From assembly GCA_037139515.1 (NCBI GenBank), contig JBAXGH010000004.1:7514-71513 (forward strand): 64,000 bases of DNA, in the 5' to 3' direction. The notes beneath the pieces are model-generated. The model saw nothing but the letters and a program-made list of their open reading frames with translations. It made no database searches and was not told the DNA's origin. This document shows, one piece after another, positions 7,377-63,073 of the stretch. How positions within the stretch are numbered: position 1 is the stretch's first letter; every line of letters begins with the position of its first letter. A program made the position numbers and the translations under genes. This DNA is from a bacterium. Lineage in GTDB: Bacteria > Patescibacteriota > Patescibacteriia > JBAXGH01.

Positions 7377-7640
7377 GTGCAAAGGGAGGAAGCGATGAAG
7401 CAATTGGTGCAGGACCCGGTGCGGATTGCCCGCGAAACCGGCGGGTGTACGTTTGAGCCGGGGTTGGGGTGGTGGGCTTTCTCAAAGAGTCCGTTGCCCG
7501 GAGCGAAGTTGTTGCATAACAACAATCGGGCACGTTTCTTTATGCCCACCTTGACCCGCAATGGGCGCAAGATCAGCCACAAGCCGCCGCAGGATTGGAC
7601 CGGTGTTTCAGGTTTGCGCGAGGCGCGCTTTGCGGTGTGA
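7377..7640 (+). CDS. Small hypothetical protein. A second small overlapping ORF at 7595/7718-7828 is possible.
   Basis: AGGGAGGA ribosome-binding site 6 nt upstream of the ATG, and a promoter upstream. The region is higher-GC. Weak. Confidence 0.35.
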   Translation: MQREEAMKQLVQDPVRIARETGGCTFEPGLGWWAFSKSPLPGAKLLHNNNRARFFMPTLTRNGRKISHKPPQDWTGVSGLREARFAV

Positions 7641-7838
7641 CCAGTGCTAAGGGTCTCTGGATTCTCGCAACAGGGGCGGTACAGGTTGAAGACATCCTGA
7701 TTTATGAAGTTGAGGGGATGCCGGACAAGCTCGAGGATCACTTGTCCTCACTCGCTCTGCGGGTGAAAGAAACCTGCGATCAAGAATGCGTGGCGTTCGA
7801 GATCGGAAACGAATTGCGCTTTGTGTGATTTTTGGTGA

Positions 7839-7869
7839 GCGCCGAGACGAAGTTGTCTCGGCGTTTTAT
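7839..7869. terminator. Bidirectional intrinsic terminator
   Basis: gcgccgagacgaagttgtctcggcg hairpin followed by TTTTAT. It sits between convergent genes. Confidence 0.6.
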
Positions 7870-8615: not shown

Positions 8616-8795
8616 ATGATGAGATATCTTTCATAAATAATTGACGAAGAAAGTATACATTAGTTGGCTAAAATAAGCAAATATGTGTGAATTTACTGTA
8701 TAGTCTTCTAAAATATTTGGCGTATTTGTATGGGTGGATTATGGTGTCTGTACCGCTGTGGTAGCGGCGCACACTGACAATCAAACGAGGAAAAC

Positions 8796-9074
8796 ATGAA
8801 GAACGCAATGCGCGATGGAAAACCGAGACGGCATCATGTCGGGTGTAAATGCGCTGGCTGTCGGCGTCCATGTCGGTGTTCGCGCTGTCTTAAGAAGATG
8901 CGGGTGCAGCAACTTACGAGGCTGGAAGAATTCGTGGCGCAGAACTTGAAGCACTTGATCGGTAACATTTGCTATTACGATTGTCCTCGGTGCGACATGC
9001 CACTTGTGCGGATCGACTATCTCTCCTCGGGCTTCCCTGGGTCGATGCGGATGAGCTGTAGCTGTGGTGAATAG
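8796..9074 (+). CDS. Small Cys-rich (zinc-ribbon-like) protein, paralog 1
   Basis: HHVGCKCAGCRRPCRCSRC... and CPRC, CSCGE. Paralogous to the protein encoded at 10520-10792. First gene of the higher-GC island. Confidence 0.55.
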   Translation: MKNAMRDGKPRRHHVGCKCAGCRRPCRCSRCLKKMRVQQLTRLEEFVAQNLKHLIGNICYYDCPRCDMPLVRIDYLSSGFPGSMRMSCSCGE

Positions 9075-9162
9075 TGGTACTCGTCTACACGCGCAGGTTG
9101 TCGTTTGACCTGCGCCTTCTTATGGGGCTCTGAAATCCATTCAGAGTCACTAGGGAGAAAAC

Positions 9163-9837
9163 ATGAAAGCTGTTCCGTTTGTGCCGAAGGACCATGTGCC
9201 GCCAATTTTGGGCCGGCTCAAGTGTGATGAACTCACAATGCAGCTTGTACCTGAAGTGCGGAGTGTAGCCTGTCTCGTGATGGACTGCTCGACTTCAATG
9301 CGCGATTTTGGCAAAGCGCCGCGTCGCGTCATGAACGAGTACGTGAGGACTCTCCGTGAGTCAGTGTCAGCCAAAACTACGAGCGTTTGCGTGTTGCGCT
9401 TTGCTGCGGAGCTCGAAGTAGTGGCGCAAAACCAAATCGCAGTGGCCGCGGGTGACGTTCCTCGTTTCGAGCTCACCCGAGGCACGCGCTTGTTTGGAGC
9501 GCTGCTCACAGTGCTCGAAAAAGTGGTCGGAGCGGTTGAAGCCGAAAGGGCTCGCGGTCGCCCGGTGAACGCCACGGTCACGCTCTTTACCGACGGCTAC
9601 GATTGGCTTTCGACGCAAGAAGAAAGGCAAGCGTTGCCGGATATGGTCATGCAGGCCAAGATGAATGACGTAAAGGTTCTCCTTGTGGGAATCGGCGTCG
9701 AGCTATATGGCTTTGCCGACGAAATCTGGGTGGCGCCGTCGGATGTGATTTTCATCAAGCCGACCTGCGATGAGTTGATTCAGTCAGGGCGGGCGATCTC
9801 TGAAATCACCAGAGAGCGCTCCGAAAGTGCTCGATGA
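9163..9837 (+). CDS. von Willebrand factor A (VWA) domain protein
   Basis: A MIDAS motif DCSTSM (DxSxS) and a downstream TDG. Good ribosome-binding site. Preceded by the conserved two-hairpin leader. Confidence 0.65.
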   Translation: MKAVPFVPKDHVPPILGRLKCDELTMQLVPEVRSVACLVMDCSTSMRDFGKAPRRVMNEYVRTLRESVSAKTTSVCVLRFAAELEVVAQNQIAVAAGDVPRFELTRGTRLFGALLTVLEKVVGAVEAERARGRPVNATVTLFTDGYDWLSTQEERQALPDMVMQAKMNDVKVLLVGIGVELYGFADEIWVAPSDVIFIKPTCDELIQSGRAISEITRERSESAR

Positions 9838-9960
9838 GTGTCTGGTTGAAAGGCCAGATAGCTGCGCTGGTCTAATAAATCAGCGCCTTCTTATGGAGCC
9901 CCGGAATGGTCCGAGGTTCCTCAGGAAGAAACCGCATGCTTCAAGAAAGGAAGGGACAAC

Positions 9961-10425
9961 ATGAGCCATGATTGTGATGGGGGCTTCTCAGAGGAATTTG
10001 AAAAGCGCGTCGAAGCGCGTCGGCAAGAGGCTCTGAAAAAGCAGATTCTGGAGAAGGCGATTACGATCGTCATCGGGCGTGGATCTTTCGCGCGTTTGTG
10101 GCGTGAAGAGCGCATTCCCGAGCAAGCACGTTGTGAATTCCAGCCGTTCACCATCACGGTGGACGCGAATGTCCGGGTGACATTTGCGGGGCGTCTGGTT
10201 TTCGACAGCGGCCGGTTTGGGATCGGCGATGAACTTGAAGGGCTTGTCTGCGACCCACAGGTCTTTATCCCGGGAGAGTGGGAGAAGATCTTTGATGGAC
10301 TCTTTGAGCAGGCAAAACCCGTTGCTCAAAGTGTTCAGAATGCGCATCGTGAAGTGCTCCGGCAAAAGGAGAAGGGAGAGCGTGATGAGCGTGAAAGAGA
10401 GGAAGCAAAAAAGTGGGGATTGTGA
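9961..10425 (+). CDS. Hypothetical protein (no recognisable motif; carries the leader-2 motif upstream)
   Basis: A 154-aa ORF. GGAAGGG ribosome-binding site. Preceded by copy 2 of the leader motif. Confidence 0.5.
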   Translation: MSHDCDGGFSEEFEKRVEARRQEALKKQILEKAITIVIGRGSFARLWREERIPEQARCEFQPFTITVDANVRVTFAGRLVFDSGRFGIGDELEGLVCDPQVFIPGEWEKIFDGLFEQAKPVAQSVQNAHREVLRQKEKGERDEREREEAKKWGL

Positions 10426-10519
10426 AAGCTGGCGGATGGGTGGCTAGCCCGGCGAAGTGAAATGCTTCGCCCTTTTATGGAGCTTCGGAATGATCCGGGG
10501 CTACTGGAGGGAGGAAAAG

Positions 10520-10792
10520 ATGGAAAAACATCATAAGGGGTGCATCTGCGTTGTCTGTAAGACGCCTTGCCACTGCCCGGACTGCATTCGTGAGCGGGAG
10601 GAGGCCGAGGCTCTGGCGGCGCGGATCGAGGCGGAGGCTAACCGGGTTGTGCGAGTGGAAGAGACGAGGTGTGAAAGGCACGGTTGCACGGTACGCGTTC
10701 TTCACCGCGCATCCGGCAAAACTGAAACCGACATTTGTCGAGTTTGCATGCGGGGTGGGGACCCTGGTCCCTGGCATGGGTCCGCATACTGA
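10520..10792 (+). CDS. Small Cys-rich protein, paralog 2
   Basis: MEKHHKGCICVVCKTPCHCPDC mirrors the 8796 protein. GGAGGGAGG ribosome-binding site. Preceded by copy 3 of the leader motif. Confidence 0.5.
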   Translation: MEKHHKGCICVVCKTPCHCPDCIREREEAEALAARIEAEANRVVRVEETRCERHGCTVRVLHRASGKTETDICRVCMRGGDPGPWHGSAY

Positions 10793-10827
10793 AGAAGCCC
10801 TTATTTTAGGGCCACGAAAGGAGAAGC

Positions 10828-11007
10828 GATGCACGGACTTGGAACCATCATCGGCATGAATGAAGCGGCTTATGCGCGATTCATGCAGGCAAAGAAGGCG
10901 GGCTTGATGCGAGAGCTCGAAGGTGACGATCGAAGCGAGCTCCGTGCGGTACCGGAAAACGAAAAAACGCAACCTCGCGATCATCCAAAGGGAAAGAAGA
11001 GGGACTA
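10828..11007 (+). CDS. Small hypothetical protein (59 aa)
   Basis: AAAGGAGAAGCG-ATG ribosome-binding site. Below the ORF-track size cutoff. Weak. Confidence 0.3.
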
Positions 11008-11099
11008 GTCGGTTTTTTACCCTTGCATTGATTGAAGTTTTCGTTTAACTTCGTCTGCAGGGAAGTGTCAAAACAGCGCTTTGCGCGAAAAGGAGCACA

Positions 11100-11525
11100 G
11101 TGATGATGAGTCTAGTGATTGCAGGGTTGTTTGCGGCCGTTCTTGGCCAAGTACCGAACACGGAAGCACTGAAGGGCGCGAAGGAGTGGCGAAAGGCAAG
11201 CCAAGCCGTCATGCTGAACCTGCCGGCGGATCCAAAGGCGAGTCAGGCAGAAATCAGGACGCGCTTGCGGCTCGTAATCCGGAAAGGCGATCTGGTCATC
11301 CAGGCGGAGAAAACTTTCATCGAGCAGAATCTGAAAGCGATTCTCGTGAAGTCGCTCAAGATGCCGGAAGACAAGCGGCATCCGGAGCTCGAAAACCTGG
11401 AAAAGATGAACGACCTCCAGTCGAGAACCTGCGCATTGTACCTTGTGAAGTTCGGGGGTCAGAGCGAAGAGGTTCCGGAGTGTGCGAAGCTACCTCCTCG
11501 ATTTCAGACCTGGCAACAGAAGTGA
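11100..11525 (+). CDS. Secreted hypothetical protein
   Basis: AAGGAG ribosome-binding site and a signal-peptide-like N-terminus MMSLVIAGLFAAVLGQV. Last gene of the higher-GC island. Confidence 0.55.
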   Translation: MMMSLVIAGLFAAVLGQVPNTEALKGAKEWRKASQAVMLNLPADPKASQAEIRTRLRLVIRKGDLVIQAEKTFIEQNLKAILVKSLKMPEDKRHPELENLEKMNDLQSRTCALYLVKFGGQSEEVPECAKLPPRFQTWQQK

Positions 11526-11531
11526 TGCCCA

Positions 11532-11562
11532 CGCCTTGAGGTGACTCAAGGCGTTTTTTTGT
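11532..11562 (+). terminator. Intrinsic terminator
   Basis: cgccttgaggtgactcaaggcg hairpin followed by TTTTTTTGTT. Confidence 0.65.
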
Positions 11563-11576
11563 TAACTTTATTCGTC

Positions 11577-11613
11577 AAAAACCAAAAGCCGGCATAGAGC
11601 GCCGGCTTTTGGT
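11577..11613. terminator. Bidirectional terminator hairpin (14-bp stem)
   Basis: aaccaaaagccggc...gccggcttttggtt, with T-rich sequence on both strands. Confidence 0.5.
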
Positions 11614-11742
11614 TTATTCTTCTTCGTCCTCGTCATCTTCCTCTTCCGCCTCCGCTTCGATCTCTTCAAGGTTTTCTTCTTCGTCGAGTCCTGGCTCTTC
11701 AGGCTTCTTTGCTGCTGGATCTATGAACTTATCGTCTGCCAT
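11614..11742 (-). CDS. Tiny acidic protein (42 aa), MADDKFIDPAAKKPEEPGLDEEE...
   Basis: Open frame with strongly biased D/E composition. The ERIC-like element begins 8 bp upstream of the start. Weak. Confidence 0.3.
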   Translation of the reverse strand: MADDKFIDPAAKKPEEPGLDEEENLEEIEAEAEEEDDEDEEE

Positions 11743-11749
11743 AAATTTT

Positions 11750-11910
11750 AAGTCTGTTACCATATAAGCTCCAACCCAAAATGATAGCTTTCGGCAAACT
11801 CTAGGCGAAAAATTTTTAGCTTAGCAGGGGCTAAACGAAAAATTTTGTCGCCGTCGATTTTGCTCGAAATCTATCATTTTGTCTAAGAAGCTTATATGGC
11901 AACAGACTTA
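11750..11910. repeat. Rod-like palindromic element, copy 1 (ERIC/MITE-like or structured RNA)
   Basis: Terminal inverted repeats taagtctgttaccatataagct / aagcttatatggcaacagactta, with nested complementary halves. A second copy at 45781-45980 shows compensatory changes. Confidence 0.6.
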
Positions 11911-11989
11911 TAGTTAATTTTGTAACTCGGCATATAATACAAAACCAAGCGAAATTTTTCAAAGCCCATTTTCCACAGCCTGTTCACAT

Positions 11990-36150: not shown

Positions 36151-36954
36151 TTAGAGCTTAGCGATATCTTTTTGGGACTTACGCCACTCTGCTATCTTTG
36201 CATGATCGCCGGACATCAAAACTTCCGGGACTTTCCATTTTTTATAAACCGCCGGTCGCGTGTACTGCGCGGATTCAAGCACGCCCGGAGTGTTATGAGA
36301 TTCTTCGGTGAGTGATTCGGCGGCGCCCAAGACTCCAGGGATTTGGCGGGCGACGGCATCAATTACAACGAGTGCCGGTAATTCGCCACCGGTTAAAACA
36401 TACGGTCCGATACAAATTTCTTCGTCGATAAGATTTTCCGCGACGCGTTCGTCGATGCCTTCATAGCGACCGCAGAGCATCGTGATGCGTTTATATTTCG
36501 AAAGTCGCATGGCGTCTTGTGCGGTGAATGGTTTGCCTTTCGCTGAAAATAAAATCACGCGTTCAGTTTTTTTGCCGCGCTTGGCTTTGATTGCTTTGAG
36601 TGCGAGATCGAAAGGCTCGACGCGCATGACCATGCCCGGCCCGCCGCCGAAGGGTTTATCATCAACCGACTGATAATTGTTGCCCGACCAGTCACGCAAA
36701 TTATGGGCCGTGACTTTAATCAAGCCAGTGCCGGTTGCCCGACCGATGATGGAAACGCTTGTATACGGAGTAATTACTTCGGGTAAAATGGTTAGGACGT
36801 CGAAAGTTAATTTAGGCCGTAGGCCACAGGCCGTAGGGCGTAGGGCAACGTTTCGAAAAGTAGTACTATGGCCTACGGCCTGCAGCCTACGGCCTAGTAT
36901 TGATTTTTTGTTTTCTTGCTTTCTTGATTTTTTTGTCATAGTAAACTTGTTCAC
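36151..36954 (-). CDS. trmD: tRNA (guanine37-N1)-methyltransferase TrmD with a repeat-encoded N-terminal extension
   Basis: The core from LTFDVLTILPEVITPY to the C-terminus matches TrmD. The first ~47 codons overlap the GGCCGTAGG palindromic repeat, and no canonical start lies right at the core. Confidence 0.8.
   Translation of the reverse strand: MNKFTMTKKSRKQENKKSILGRRLQAVGHSTTFRNVALRPTACGLRPKLTFDVLTILPEVITPYTSVSIIGRATGTGLIKVTAHNLRDWSGNNYQSVDDKPFGGGPGMVMRVEPFDLALKAIKAKRGKKTERVILFSAKGKPFTAQDAMRLSKYKRITMLCGRYEGIDERVAENLIDEEICIGPYVLTGGELPALVVIDAVARQIPGVLGAAESLTEESHNTPGVLESAQYTRPAVYKKWKVPEVLMSGDHAKIAEWRKSQKDIAKL
36813..36897. repeat. ~85-bp palindrome built from GGCCGTAGG-family repeats, inside the trmD 5' region
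   Basis: ggccgtaggccacaggccgtagggcgtaggg (36815-36845) and the inverted partner ggcctacggcctgcagcctacggcc (36870-36894). Confidence 0.65.
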
Positions 36955-42632: not shown

Positions 42633-43763
42633 TCAAGGCTTGAGCTTATTATCGGCGCCGATGGCTTCGGAGATATTTTTAAACCCGTCACGCTTCAAAA
42701 GCTCAATCAATCCGGCATTGATCTCGCCGACTAACTGTGGTCCTTCAAAAATCATACCCGTAATGAGTTGGAGCAGGGAAGCGCCGGCGCGAATTTTTAG
42801 GTAAGCATCTTCGGCGCTAAAAATGCCGCCGCAACCGACAAGCGTAAATCGCGAACCGTATTTTTTATATAAGTGTGAGAGTTGAGCGTTGGCTTTTTCT
42901 TCGACGAGTTTTCCGGAAAGTCCACCGTGAGTCGGGCGCAGCGCCTCGGGAACGGCTTCGTAGGTTTTGGTGAGATTGCTCGAAATCAAGCCTTGAATTC
43001 GGTGGCGCGCGGCGACATCGATCAGCGAATCAAGCTGTTCAAACGTCAGATCCGGTGAAAGTTTTATAAAGATAGGCCGTGGGCCGTAGGCCGTAGGGCG
43101 TAGGGAAACATTTTCGAGCGCAGTGAGCAGCTTTTCTAAGCGCGGGGCATCATTAAAAGGTTGGCCGCCGAATGCATTCGGGCAGCTGATATTGATTGTT
43201 ATGTAATCAGCGGTATCTTTTACGGCTTCCAGGGCGGCGCCATAGTCCGCAATCGCGGCTTCGTCTTCGGCGGTTTCGGCGCAATTAGTTTTAGCGATAC
43301 TTACTCCGACCGGAAAACGATGAGACACGGCGTGTAAACGAACCGCGACATTCGCCGCGCCTTCGTTCTTTAAACCATACCAAACCACAAGTGATTGCTG
43401 ATCTTTGAGGCGCCAGAGCCGCGGTTTTGGATTTCCCGCGCAGGTTTTTCCTGTGACTGATCCGGCTTCCATAAAGCCGAATCCAACGTCAGGCAAAATA
43501 TTTAAAAGATGAGCGTCTTTATCAAAACCGGCGGCGAGTCCAACCGGATTTTTAAATTCAAGTCCGCGAATATTTTGGACGAGCGACGGGTCTTCGATAT
43601 GAAAAGCTAAGCGAGTGAAAAATCGAGTCACCGAAAAGCGCCCGAGAAACTCGCCGAGGTGAGTCATCGAATCATGAACATCTTCCGGGTCGCGGCGAAA
43701 GAAAAGCGGTTTGGCTAGATTTTTGTAAATGAATCGTGATGTGGCGTGAAAAACTTTTTTCAT
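42633..43763 (-). CDS. pyrD: Dihydroorotate dehydrogenase (quinone type) carrying an in-frame repeat insertion
   Basis: A DHOD family-2 layout (NPVGLAAGFDKDAHLLNILPDVGFGFMEAGSVTGKTCAGNPKPRLWRL; GGIFSAEDAYLKIRAGASL). The segment SLRPTAYGPRPI is encoded by the GGCCGTAGG repeat at 43075-43105. Confidence 0.85.
   Translation of the reverse strand: MKKVFHATSRFIYKNLAKPLFFRRDPEDVHDSMTHLGEFLGRFSVTRFFTRLAFHIEDPSLVQNIRGLEFKNPVGLAAGFDKDAHLLNILPDVGFGFMEAGSVTGKTCAGNPKPRLWRLKDQQSLVVWYGLKNEGAANVAVRLHAVSHRFPVGVSIAKTNCAETAEDEAAIADYGAALEAVKDTADYITINISCPNAFGGQPFNDAPRLEKLLTALENVSLRPTAYGPRPIFIKLSPDLTFEQLDSLIDVAARHRIQGLISSNLTKTYEAVPEALRPTHGGLSGKLVEEKANAQLSHLYKKYGSRFTLVGCGGIFSAEDAYLKIRAGASLLQLITGMIFEGPQLVGEINAGLIELLKRDGFKNISEAIGADNKLKP
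43075..43105. repeat. GGCCGTGGGCCGTAGGCCGTAGGGCGTAGGG repeat, in frame within pyrD
   Basis: The same 31-mer family occurs at 36815-36845 and 62008-62037. Confidence 0.65.
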
Positions 43764-45751: not shown

Positions 45752-45780
45752 GGTCTGCTCCTTTTTTGGTTGCGGGTTAG

Positions 45781-45980
45781 TAAGCCTGTTGCCATTTAAG
45801 CTCCAGCTCAAAATGGTAGCTTTCGGCAAACTCTAGGTAAAATATTTTTACCCTTCTACTTATGTTAAATAAGTCGGGTACCCTGTGGCTTAGCTATGGC
45901 TAAACAAAAAATATTTTACCGTCGACTTTGCTCGAAATCTACCTATTTTTATCAGGAAGCTTAAATGGCAACAGGCTTAC
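45781..45980. repeat. Rod-like palindromic element, copy 2
   Basis: Perfect 22-bp terminal inverted repeats, taagcctgttgccatttaagct and its reverse complement. Internal complementary halves. Homologous to 11750-11910. Confidence 0.6.
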
Positions 45981-46037
45981 TGGTTTGCTTATCACAAAAA
46001 CAAAAGCCCGGCAAGACCCGGGCTTTCGTTTGATGCC

Positions 46038-61918: not shown

Positions 61919-63073
61919 ATGAACCTCGATTCAACGACGCTCCGATATATTGCCGTGGCTTTGACCGCTCTCGCCGGAGGACTCTATTGGTTTTGGAATC
62001 GCGGTGAGGCCGTAGGCCATCGGCCGCAGGGCGTAGGAGTGCTCAAAAATCTTACCGAACTTGCAAAAACCGGGGCGCTTGATGCCGTCATCGGTCGCGA
62101 TGATGAGATCGATCGCATTATCCAAATCATCCAGCGACGCACCAAAAATAATCCTTTATTGCTTGGCGACCCGGGAGTAGGGAAGACGGCTATCGTTGAA
62201 GGTCTCGCAGTTCGAATCATTAAAAACAATGTTCCGAAGGCTTTACAGGGAAAACAGATATTTGAACTTTCGGTCGCCGAACTGATTGCCGGCACCAAAT
62301 ATCGCGGAGAATTTGAGGAGCGCTTACGTGGCGTTATGAAGGAATTAGAGAAGGCTCCGCGTCAGACGATTTTGTTTGTTGATGAGATTCATCTACTCGA
62401 GCAAACCAAGGGCGCCGAGGGCGCAGTTTCGGCTTCCGATGTTTTGAAGCCAGCGCTTGCTCGTGGTGATGTTTCGATTATCGGTGCCACGACACTCAAA
62501 GAATACGAAGAATATATTCGCCCGAACACGGCGCTCGATCGTAGGTTTCAACCGGTTTTGGTTGCTGAACCGACTCCGGAAGCGGCGCTTGCTGTGCTTC
62601 GTGGTATCGCAAACTTATACGAGAAGCATCACGACGTGATTATCGACGACGACGCGCTTGAAGCCGCGGTCACGCTTTCGATTGAAAAATTAAAGGGTCG
62701 TCGTTTGCCGGACAAAGCGATTGATATCATCGACGAAGCTTCGGCCAAGGTCGCGATTGAAATGCAGGGCGCGCACGCAACGGCCATCGGTGTTATGCAT
62801 GCTGCCGCTGAGAAGTCTCGCGAGAGAGCCGCCAAAGAACGCCAGGATATCGGATTCGAAACCAAGCATTTAGAGGAGTTGTCGAAGAAGTATCCCGGCG
62901 ATCCGGCTCTCATGAGCGCGGAGAAAACCCTGCAGAGACATGAAGCAGAGCTCGCGGTCGTGGCTTCGGCGCGGGTTTCGGACGATGGTCGGGCGCGGGT
63001 TTTGCGCAAAGACGTGGAAGAAGTCATCGCCGCCTGGGCGGATCTTGGAAAAGCCGAGGAAAAATCAAAATAA
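61919..63073 (+). CDS. Clp/Hsp100 D1-type AAA+ ATPase (single domain, membrane-anchored) with an in-frame repeat
   Basis: LDAVIGRDDEIDRIIQIIQRRTKNNPLLLGDPGVGKTAIVEGLAVRI...GTKYRGEFEERL matches ClpA/B D1. N-terminal TM segment. EAVGHRPQGVGV is encoded by the 62008-62037 repeat. Confidence 0.7.
   Translation: MNLDSTTLRYIAVALTALAGGLYWFWNRGEAVGHRPQGVGVLKNLTELAKTGALDAVIGRDDEIDRIIQIIQRRTKNNPLLLGDPGVGKTAIVEGLAVRIIKNNVPKALQGKQIFELSVAELIAGTKYRGEFEERLRGVMKELEKAPRQTILFVDEIHLLEQTKGAEGAVSASDVLKPALARGDVSIIGATTLKEYEEYIRPNTALDRRFQPVLVAEPTPEAALAVLRGIANLYEKHHDVIIDDDALEAAVTLSIEKLKGRRLPDKAIDIIDEASAKVAIEMQGAHATAIGVMHAAAEKSRERAAKERQDIGFETKHLEELSKKYPGDPALMSAEKTLQRHEAELAVVASARVSDDGRARVLRKDVEEVIAAWADLGKAEEKSK
62008..62037. 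repeat. GGCCGTAGGCCATCGGCCGCAGGGCGTAGG repeat, in frame within the Clp-like gene
   Basis: Third member of the 31-bp GGCCGTAGG family. Confidence 0.6.

Follow-up and report, generated by a model that had tools for sequence, protein, structure and literature searches.

The stretch of DNA analysed here, referred to throughout as the window, comprises 64,000 nt (positions 7,514 to 71,513) of contig JBAXGH010000004.1 from a bacterium of the Patescibacteriota (assembly GCA_037139515.1). Near its left end lies a GC-rich island bearing six small genes, which specify, in order, a Cys-rich protein (Cys-rich protein 1), a VWA-like protein, a 154-aa protein, a second Cys-rich protein (Cys-rich protein 2), the product of a 59-aa open reading frame (ORF) and a 141-aa protein; a divergently oriented gene for a TrmB-family helix-turn-helix (HTH) regulator adjoins them. 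The subject of this report is a module of ~65 nt, built of two abutting hairpins that we term P1 and P2, which occupies three consecutive intergenic spacers of the island (9091-9157, 9864-9928 and 10451-10511; copies 1, 2 and 3), ahead of the VWA, 154-aa and Cys-rich 2 genes. An earlier reading made from the letters alone (hereafter the sequence-only reading) had described a composite element in front of these three middle genes, and we found it there three times. The location, orientation and main characteristics of all features of the locus are collected in Table 1.

Architecture and predicted fold of the module

The three copies share a 38-nt core, for which a repeat search gave pairwise identities of 63-79 %, and the 13-nt motif CTTYTTATGGRGC, when at most one mismatch was allowed, was found at these three sites only in the 64 kb. 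P1 is a hairpin of 8-10 pairs, of which five or six are G-C, with a loop of 3-7 nt. Its position is fixed and its sequence variable: copies 1 and 2 have mostly the same P1 sequence, with an A-U to U-A swap, and the P1 of copy 3 is unrelated to both. P2 starts directly after P1 with zero linker, and a single U/C tract is at once the tail of P1 and the basal strand of P2. The latter is a near-continuous helix of 17-18 bp that consists of a basal part (P2a) and an upper part (P2b; 9-11 bp, closed by a loop of 4-5 nt), separated at the same position in all copies by a bulged U and a G/A 1x1 internal loop. Only ~7 nt of the module are both conserved and unpaired. The primary sequence in and around P2 (UUAUGGRGC and GRAAU) is kept beyond the needs of pairing.

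Two further roles for parts of the module were considered and rejected. A coding function of the conserved AUG is contradicted by the frame, which closes after three codons in copy 1, and by the lack of an upstream Shine-Dalgarno (SD) sequence; similarly, there is no conserved complementarity that would allow a kissing loop or pseudoknot between the P1 and P2 loops. A second AUG was observed in the P2 loops of copies 3 (10490) and 2 (9906), preceded in each by GGAG-N7. That of copy 3 shares the frame of the Cys-rich 2 ORF, whose start it is for one gene caller (resulting in 100 rather than 90 aa), and that of copy 2 is in frame with a putative upstream ORF (uORF). Because copy 1 has AUC at this place, the loop AUG was treated as coincidental.

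Table 1. Positions of the island, its genes, the three copies of the module and the flanking elements
Feature	Position in window	Strand	Characteristics
Divergent TrmB-family HTH regulator gene, 249 aa	7866-8615	-	Pfam TrmB, E 2.2e-12; NCBIfam TrmB-type matches
Left arm of 19-nt imperfect inverted repeat	8641-8659		TTGACGAAGAAAGTATACA; repeat search
GC-rich island block	8796-11525	+	Six small genes
Cys-rich protein 1, 92 aa	8796-9074	+	HHxGCxCxxCxxPCxCxxC plus C-terminal CxxC...CxC; no upstream module
Copy 1, P1	9091-9115	+	10-bp GC hairpin, CUUCUUAU directly 3'; terminator-like
Copy 1, P2	9116-9157	+	CUUCUUA (9116-9122) pairs with UAGGGAG (9151-9157); upper stem 9126-9134/9140-9148; loop AUCCA
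VWA-like protein, 224 aa	9163-9837	+	DxSxS MIDAS motif present as DCSTS; phrog_7371
Copy 2, P1	9864-9886	+	8-bp GC hairpin, CUUCUUAU directly 3'
Copy 2, P2	9887-9928	+	CUUCUU pairs with AGGAAG (9923-9928); one C·A mismatch in upper stem; loop AUGG
Putative 11-codon uORF	9936-9971	+	MLQERKGQHEP*; AUG 7 nt after masked AGGAAG; predicted from sequence
154-aa protein ('KWGL' family)	9961-10425	+	Small uncharacterised family; (Y/F)(I/V)PGxWE and C-terminal KWG(L/F)
Copy 3, P1	10451-10471	+	8-bp GC hairpin, CUUUUAU directly 3'
Copy 3, P2	10472-10511	+	CUUUUA pairs with UGGAGG (10505-10510); two adjacent U·G pairs in upper stem; loop AUGA
Cys-rich protein 2, 90 aa	10520-10792	+	Gene callers disagree on start (90 or 100 aa)
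59-aa ORF	10829-11008	+	Strong SD; short hairpin upstream, no module
141-aa protein	11100-11525	+	N-terminal hydrophobic, signal-like segment; no upstream module
Canonical intrinsic terminator of island operon	11531-11554	+	10-bp stem followed by TTTTTTT
Right arm of 19-nt imperfect inverted repeat	11560-11578		Reverse complement TTGACGAATAAAGTTAACA; repeat search

One architecture was predicted for all three copies, with folding z-scores of -3.8, -3.2 and -2.5 for copies 1, 2 and 3, respectively; for copy 1, the predicted minimum free energy structure is constant across 10-45 °C. In order to count pairs, we aligned the copies with MAFFT and wrote the structure by hand. Over the whole structure, standard pairs fill 90.5 % of cells; in controls with the 3' partners displaced by 1-3 columns they fill 34-61 %. 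Eight pairs have changed on both sides, values that were reached by 1 of 500 shuffles. As the alignment offsets copy 3 by one column relative to the others, the pairing figures for P1 are underestimates. Furthermore, 14 of the 75 predicted pairs are G·U, and in every copy the plus strand gives a fold that is 5-11 kcal/mol more stable than that of the minus strand (-33.6 versus -23.1, -33.1 versus -28.3 and -28.9 versus -18.0 kcal/mol for copies 1, 2 and 3, respectively). Taken together, the G·U pairs, the strand asymmetry and the compensatory changes favour a module that acts as sense-strand RNA rather than as a DNA palindrome, in agreement with the RNA-level structure that the sequence-only reading had argued for. 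That reading had also held that a GC hairpin of variable sequence stays paired, which it does in all three copies, and that the second stem covaries; the latter folds in the three copies with compensatory changes, but a C·A mismatch interrupts it in copy 2. Its description of the conserved segment as single-stranded disagrees with the predicted fold, in which most of this segment is paired: CUUYUU(A) with the downstream purine tract, and GGRGC within the second stem.

We built a covariance model from the three copies, which scored 69-78 bits on them and no more than 20 bits elsewhere in the 64 kb with filters off, where its best other match was a P1-like terminator at 36097. With this model, the module was not found before the Cys-rich 1, 59-aa and 141-aa genes. 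The motif could have turned out to be an ordinary terminator plus promoter that recurs throughout the genome; its P1 part is indeed terminator-like, but the module as a whole occurs at three sites only in the window. A search of the window against Rfam at gathering thresholds placed no family on the island, and relaxing the search of the island to E-values of up to 10 gave chance-level matches only (the best being ylbH, at 14.6 bits versus a gathering score of 50). Two strict degenerate-pattern scans of viral sequences returned no matches. A looser viral scan returned 11 matches, and pattern scans of genome contigs and metagenome contigs returned 4 and 39, all of them unrelated: most represent a single Prevotella/Segatella hairpin repeat that carries the motif in its loop, the remainder are singletons, and none has the two-hairpin fold or scores with the covariance model. 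Searches of phage and plasmid DNA likewise revealed no similarity. Thus far, the module is confined to one islet in one genome and is in no curated family.

Overlap with Shine-Dalgarno sequences and resemblance to terminators

The 16S rRNA of the host ends in GGAUCACCUCCUUUC, and as such SD-led initiation is available to it. The leader sequence CCUUCUU is one base away from the anti-SD CCUCCUU. In copy 1, the 3' strand of P2a is the SD of the VWA gene, and the mean unpaired probability of this SD window is 0.21, compared with a mean of 0.51±0.17 for 28 other genes. In copy 3, the same strand is the first half of a tandem SD, UGGAGGGAGG, and the corresponding value is 0.42. In copy 2, P2a covers the tract ahead of the putative uORF, which at its stop extends 11 nt into the 154-aa gene; the SD of the 154-aa gene itself is weakly paired by a 4-bp CUUC/GAAG mini-hairpin. 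According to these predictions, SD masking is convincing for copy 1 only, partial for copy 3 and, in copy 2, directed at the putative uORF.

With regard to the upstream hairpin, P1 plus its tail passes a terminator consensus scan in all three copies (five T per 8-nt window), and it displays the GC stem, the short loop and the immediately following T-rich tail of intrinsic terminators. It differs from them in that the tail is sequence-conserved and is reused as a strand of the next helix. By sequence, P1 is probably an ordinary weak terminator, and because of this resemblance part of the module may be mundane.

Proposed mode of action and competing explanations

Our preferred explanation, to which we give a probability of about 0.5, is that the module is a leaky terminator or 3' stabilizer fused to an SD-masking hairpin and that it acts in the mRNA. 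We infer that P1 would function as a weak intrinsic terminator and/or as a 3'-end stabilizer for the upstream cistron, whilst its U/C tail, CUUYUU(A), would be reused as an anti-SD that folds back over P2b onto the purine tract. The G·U-rich basal helix P2a would mask the ribosome-binding tract, with P2b clamping the tail in place, so that translation of the VWA gene, the Cys-rich 2 gene and, via the short uORF, the 154-aa gene would be repressed; the net effect would be a stepwise attenuation along the operon. Relief might follow the opening of the weak P2a by temperature, by a protein (e.g. the Zn-ribbon proteins of the island) or by endonucleolytic cleavage.

The module is best regarded as a new variant among the SD-masking or intercistronic structures already described for mRNAs. 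It resembles the fourU and ROSE thermometers in that weak A-U and G·U pairs join a U-rich strand to a purine-rich SD at the foot of a hairpin, in the presence of upstream hairpin(s) and with a presumed effect in cis on translation of the next ORF. However, it has no match among the Rfam thermometer families, its P2 is very stable overall (at 37 °C, about -18 kcal/mol in copies 1 and 2), masking appears complete for one gene of three, and it is repeated within an operon rather than situated in a 5' untranslated region.

A number of observations weigh against this explanation. The tails of P1 are interrupted by C (CTTCTTAT, CTTTTAT) and are much weaker than the real terminators of this genome, the clear examples of which have at least four consecutive T right after the stem (seven at 11531-11554). 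In copy 3, accessibility of the SD window is close to that seen for an average gene, and the SD of the 154-aa gene lies 25 nt past the P2 of copy 2 and is left unmasked by it (0.56). Moreover, P2a could be a by-product, because a U/C terminator tail and a purine-rich SD are complementary by nature. The covariation statistics are weak, as three copies in one genome give a formal test of the R-scape type no power, and the copies depend on one another in sequence: most of P2b is common to copies 2 and 3, and most of P1 to copies 1 and 2. Where the island recurs in other public contigs, these are 100 % identical to the window, cluster look-ups gave no relative of the flanking host genes at 90 % identity or above, and no promoter for the island operon was identified.

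We weighed five rival explanations, which in descending order of weight are an RNase III site, a duplication without function, an operator for a protein or a put-like RNA, a DNA-level site and a riboswitch. The first would make the module an intercistronic processing site of the phage T7 type, in which a cut in P2 frees the SD and leaves P1 as a 3' cap. T7 early mRNA contains several similar intercistronic hairpin sites for this enzyme (R0.3, R0.5, R1.1 and others); after cleavage the hairpin stays on the upstream 3' end, and translation of the downstream cistron can be activated. The module is comparable in that several similar hairpins with internal loops lie between consecutive cistrons of a seemingly foreign operon, and strictly there. 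Its near-continuous 17-18-bp P2 with a conserved bulge and 1x1 loop would suit the enzyme, and a P1 that abuts P2 with zero linker is aptly placed as a protective 3' hairpin. In disagreement with this, P2 is shorter than the approximately two turns that are usually preferred, and shorter than the T7 helices, with which it has no sequence similarity; an extra terminator-like hairpin precedes it, and the anti-SD-like and SD-like strands of P2a are left unexplained. We consider such a site unlikely as the sole explanation, although it is compatible with SD masking by P2, because cleavage would itself unmask the SD and leave P1 as the cap.

Equally unlikely in our estimation is that the module has no dedicated function and represents weak terminators within a locally duplicated spacer, the hairpin having been copied whole with little time to decay. 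Such an origin would be in keeping with the generic terminator scan that P1 passes, with the blocks of identical sequence shared by the copies and with the occurrence of the module nowhere else, which leaves no sign of selection across lineages. It accounts poorly, however, for the state of P2: whilst the core is only 63-79 % identical, 96 % of the cells of P2 (17 pairs when taken alone) are paired and six of its pairs have changed on both sides, and the slid-partner controls drop to 34-61 %. Nor would it lead one to expect that the P1 of copy 3, unrelated in sequence, should nevertheless form a hairpin at the same position and with zero linker.

The conservation in and around P2 that exceeds the needs of pairing could instead denote a recognition surface (UUAUGGRGC and GRAAU), whether of an operator RNA bound in trans by a protein, for which two small Zn-binding-type Cys-rich proteins encoded in the same operon are at hand, or of an RNA that modifies RNA polymerase in the manner of put. 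The put RNAs of phage HK022 are ~70 nt in length, have two stem-loops and occur as two similar copies per genome, the differences between which keep pairing (PMC9378689). The likeness to the module is one of gross shape only, i.e. size, two stem-loops and multiple similar copies with pairing kept. The put sites lie just downstream of early promoters, not before each gene, and render RNA polymerase resistant to termination via the zinc-binding domain of its beta' subunit; the module sits between cistrons, its first stem is terminator-like, as that of put is not, its second ends in an SD, and the sequences are dissimilar. With respect to a protein operator, searches of Pfam, PHROG, PADLOC and NCBIfam revealed no RNA-binding domain among the island proteins, and the structure predicted for the Cys-rich protein is too poor to use (pLDDT 43.5). 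We rate this explanation as less probable than the two before it. At a similarly low level of belief, one may speculate that the module is a cis-regulatory RNA of an undescribed class, belonging to a mobile islet of ORFans, either as an operator for its Zn-ribbon proteins or as an element directed at the polymerase or ribosome, which lets the islet meter its VWA-centred genes after transfer into a largely leaderless host.

Very improbable is a site that operates as DNA, i.e. an attC-like cassette recombination site or a boundary-marking palindrome bound by a protein. The modules do lie between genes of a compositionally foreign island with inverted-repeat ends, and imperfect palindromes between small promoterless genes of a foreign block, here with a variable P1 palindrome beside a conserved core, loosely recall the attC sites of integrons. 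On inspection, however, none of the three copies contains the pair of core sites R'' (RYYYAAC) and R' (GTTRRRY), and no integrase or recombinase is encoded in or next to the island. The RNA fold of the coding strand is preferred, given that A·C mismatches replace the G·U pairs on the opposite strand or in a duplex cruciform and that the minus strand folds worse by 5-11 kcal/mol; in addition, the genes that follow the modules are mutually unrelated, and the module lies 5' of genes and its purine tract serves as, and overlaps with, an SD. A small ligand-binding riboswitch before the three genes is the least credible of all: the compact two-helix fold does end in an SD-containing helix, but no Rfam family was found even at E-values of up to 10, only ~7 nt are conserved and unpaired, no mutually exclusive alternative fold is evident, and the three downstream genes share no metabolic theme.

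Should a leaky terminator joined to an SD-masking hairpin indeed be functional here, it would constitute compact post-transcriptional control carried by a horizontally acquired operon itself, in which one short U/C tract doubles as terminator tail and anti-SD within a module that has been copied ahead of several genes. Uncultured lineages that have been little studied would thereby gain a candidate new RNA motif. At present the module is a curiosity known from one genome, and its main practical value is that of a well-defined and easily synthesised test case for reporter assays.

The island, its proteins and other features of the window

In line with the sequence-only reading, the island is richer in GC than its flanks, with a value of 0.548 (8796-11525) versus 0.487 for the window as a whole. 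This is the highest of any 2.73-kb stretch within the 64 kb; just 0.16 % of segments of equal length reach it, every one of which overlaps the island. GC content at third codon positions (GC3) is 0.56-0.68 for the island genes and ~0.5 for neighbouring genes, and the tetranucleotide distance of the island is within the top 6 %. We also confirmed the six small genes on one strand, each preceded by a strong SD (six of six; duplex free energy to the 16S tail of -5.9 to -13.6), compared with an SD that reaches -6 at the first start of 8 of 44 other long ORFs, which represent the host. Strong terminators had been thought to flank the block; only the right one does so, as the left one (7837-7866) is found on the far side of the TrmB-family gene. 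This divergent gene has a host-like GC content of 0.459 and adjoins the island, of which its product may be the controller.

The two arms of an imperfect inverted repeat are placed exactly at both island ends and are complementary at 16 of 19 positions. As this number of matches was reached by none of 300 flank shuffles, the repeat is non-random, and no further copy with up to three mismatches occurs in the window (0.09 expected). We found neither a target-site duplication (on sequence inspection) nor a transposase (Pfam) for the island, and the ORFs and Pfam matches of the island and neighbouring genes include no integrase or recombinase. On the basis of the GC and GC3 values, the ORFan proteins, the flanking inverted repeat and an SD frequency above that of the host, the six genes probably form one foreign operon, i.e. 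an imported islet; they are presumed to be transcribed together. An amplified cassette array, as had been suggested, is unsupported, because the genes behind the leaders are unrelated (VWA, 'KWGL' family and Cys-rich) and the other Cys-rich paralog has no leader.

In the host more broadly, we observed TATAAT 6-8 nt before the ATG, with no SD, at many genes (e.g. 16875, 32370 on the minus strand, 55022 and 61919), which suggests that leaderless mRNAs are widespread. A strong SD precedes a minority of host genes (e.g. 1430, 20080 and 42041), and the 16S rRNA keeps a canonical anti-SD.

The island proteins are mostly ORFans. When 5.8 G protein clusters were searched with a word index, the VWA and 154-aa proteins matched only themselves, and the Cys-rich proteins only themselves or each other; PADLOC, PHROGs and NCBIfam (defence-system and phage families) gave nothing informative for the island proteins, sequence searches of the PDB gave no significant match, and a viral search found no relatives of the VWA protein. 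Cys-rich protein 1 has no Pfam, PHROG, PADLOC or NCBIfam match, and the unusable model mentioned above was computed from its single sequence. The paralogy of the two Cys-rich proteins that had been noticed earlier is weak but real, and resides in the N-terminal Cys motif (BLASTP E 1e-5 over 21 aa); their C-terminal halves are zinc-ribbon-like. The VWA gene scores 23.4 bits against Pfam PF00092 (E 7.7e-5), just under the gathering score of 23.8.

For the 154-aa protein, HMMER recovered seven full-length remote homologs of 133-167 aa from 1.84 G representatives (E 3.6e-6 to 6.1e-4), and the alignment shows both family motifs to be common to the protein and its homologs. An AlphaFold2 model based on this alignment is fair (pLDDT 79, pTM 0.68) and consists of two helices, a four-strand meander and a long helix, with no significant fold match in the PDB. 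Five contigs carrying these homologs were looked up, and in the three whose neighbourhoods were read the context is archaeal-type housekeeping: SBDS-X-Rrp4 (L057, 539-973), SecY-X-adenylate kinase (L059, 646-1077) and a position beside eRF1 (L058, 911-1312). In the more speculative view of the module as an RNA of an undescribed class, these contexts would hint at cross-domain traffic among episymbiont-like microbes.

Several other repeats were noted in the window. A near-perfect foldback of about 180-215 nt occurs twice, at 11745-11952 and 45777-45990, with 68 predicted pairs that are almost all Watson-Crick; in eight of these, both partners differ from one copy to the other. Identity of the aligned blocks is 76-87 %, and 37 nt are inserted at the tip of the second copy. 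The first copy, 170 nt beyond the right-hand boundary of the island, runs across the start of a 49-aa acidic ORF (11614-11763, minus strand). The foldback has no Rfam match at gathering thresholds and could be an element resembling a miniature inverted-repeat transposable element or a long structured RNA. The region at 25.9-28.5 kb, where tetranucleotide composition and skew deviate more than anywhere else in the window, contains tandem paralogous genes (repeats 25881-25992/26801-26912 and 26091-26771/26999-27679), the 112-nt junction repeat of which is 82 % identical and spans the '...ELAKAGVRIMAS*' end of one gene and the 'MEP' start of the next. Additionally, 54-nt tandem repeats (29417-29632) lie within a 981-aa ORF, and a 41-nt repeat rich in TAGGCCG/TAGGGCG is present at 36813-36853, 43073-43113 and 62006-62046, with identities of 71-88 %.

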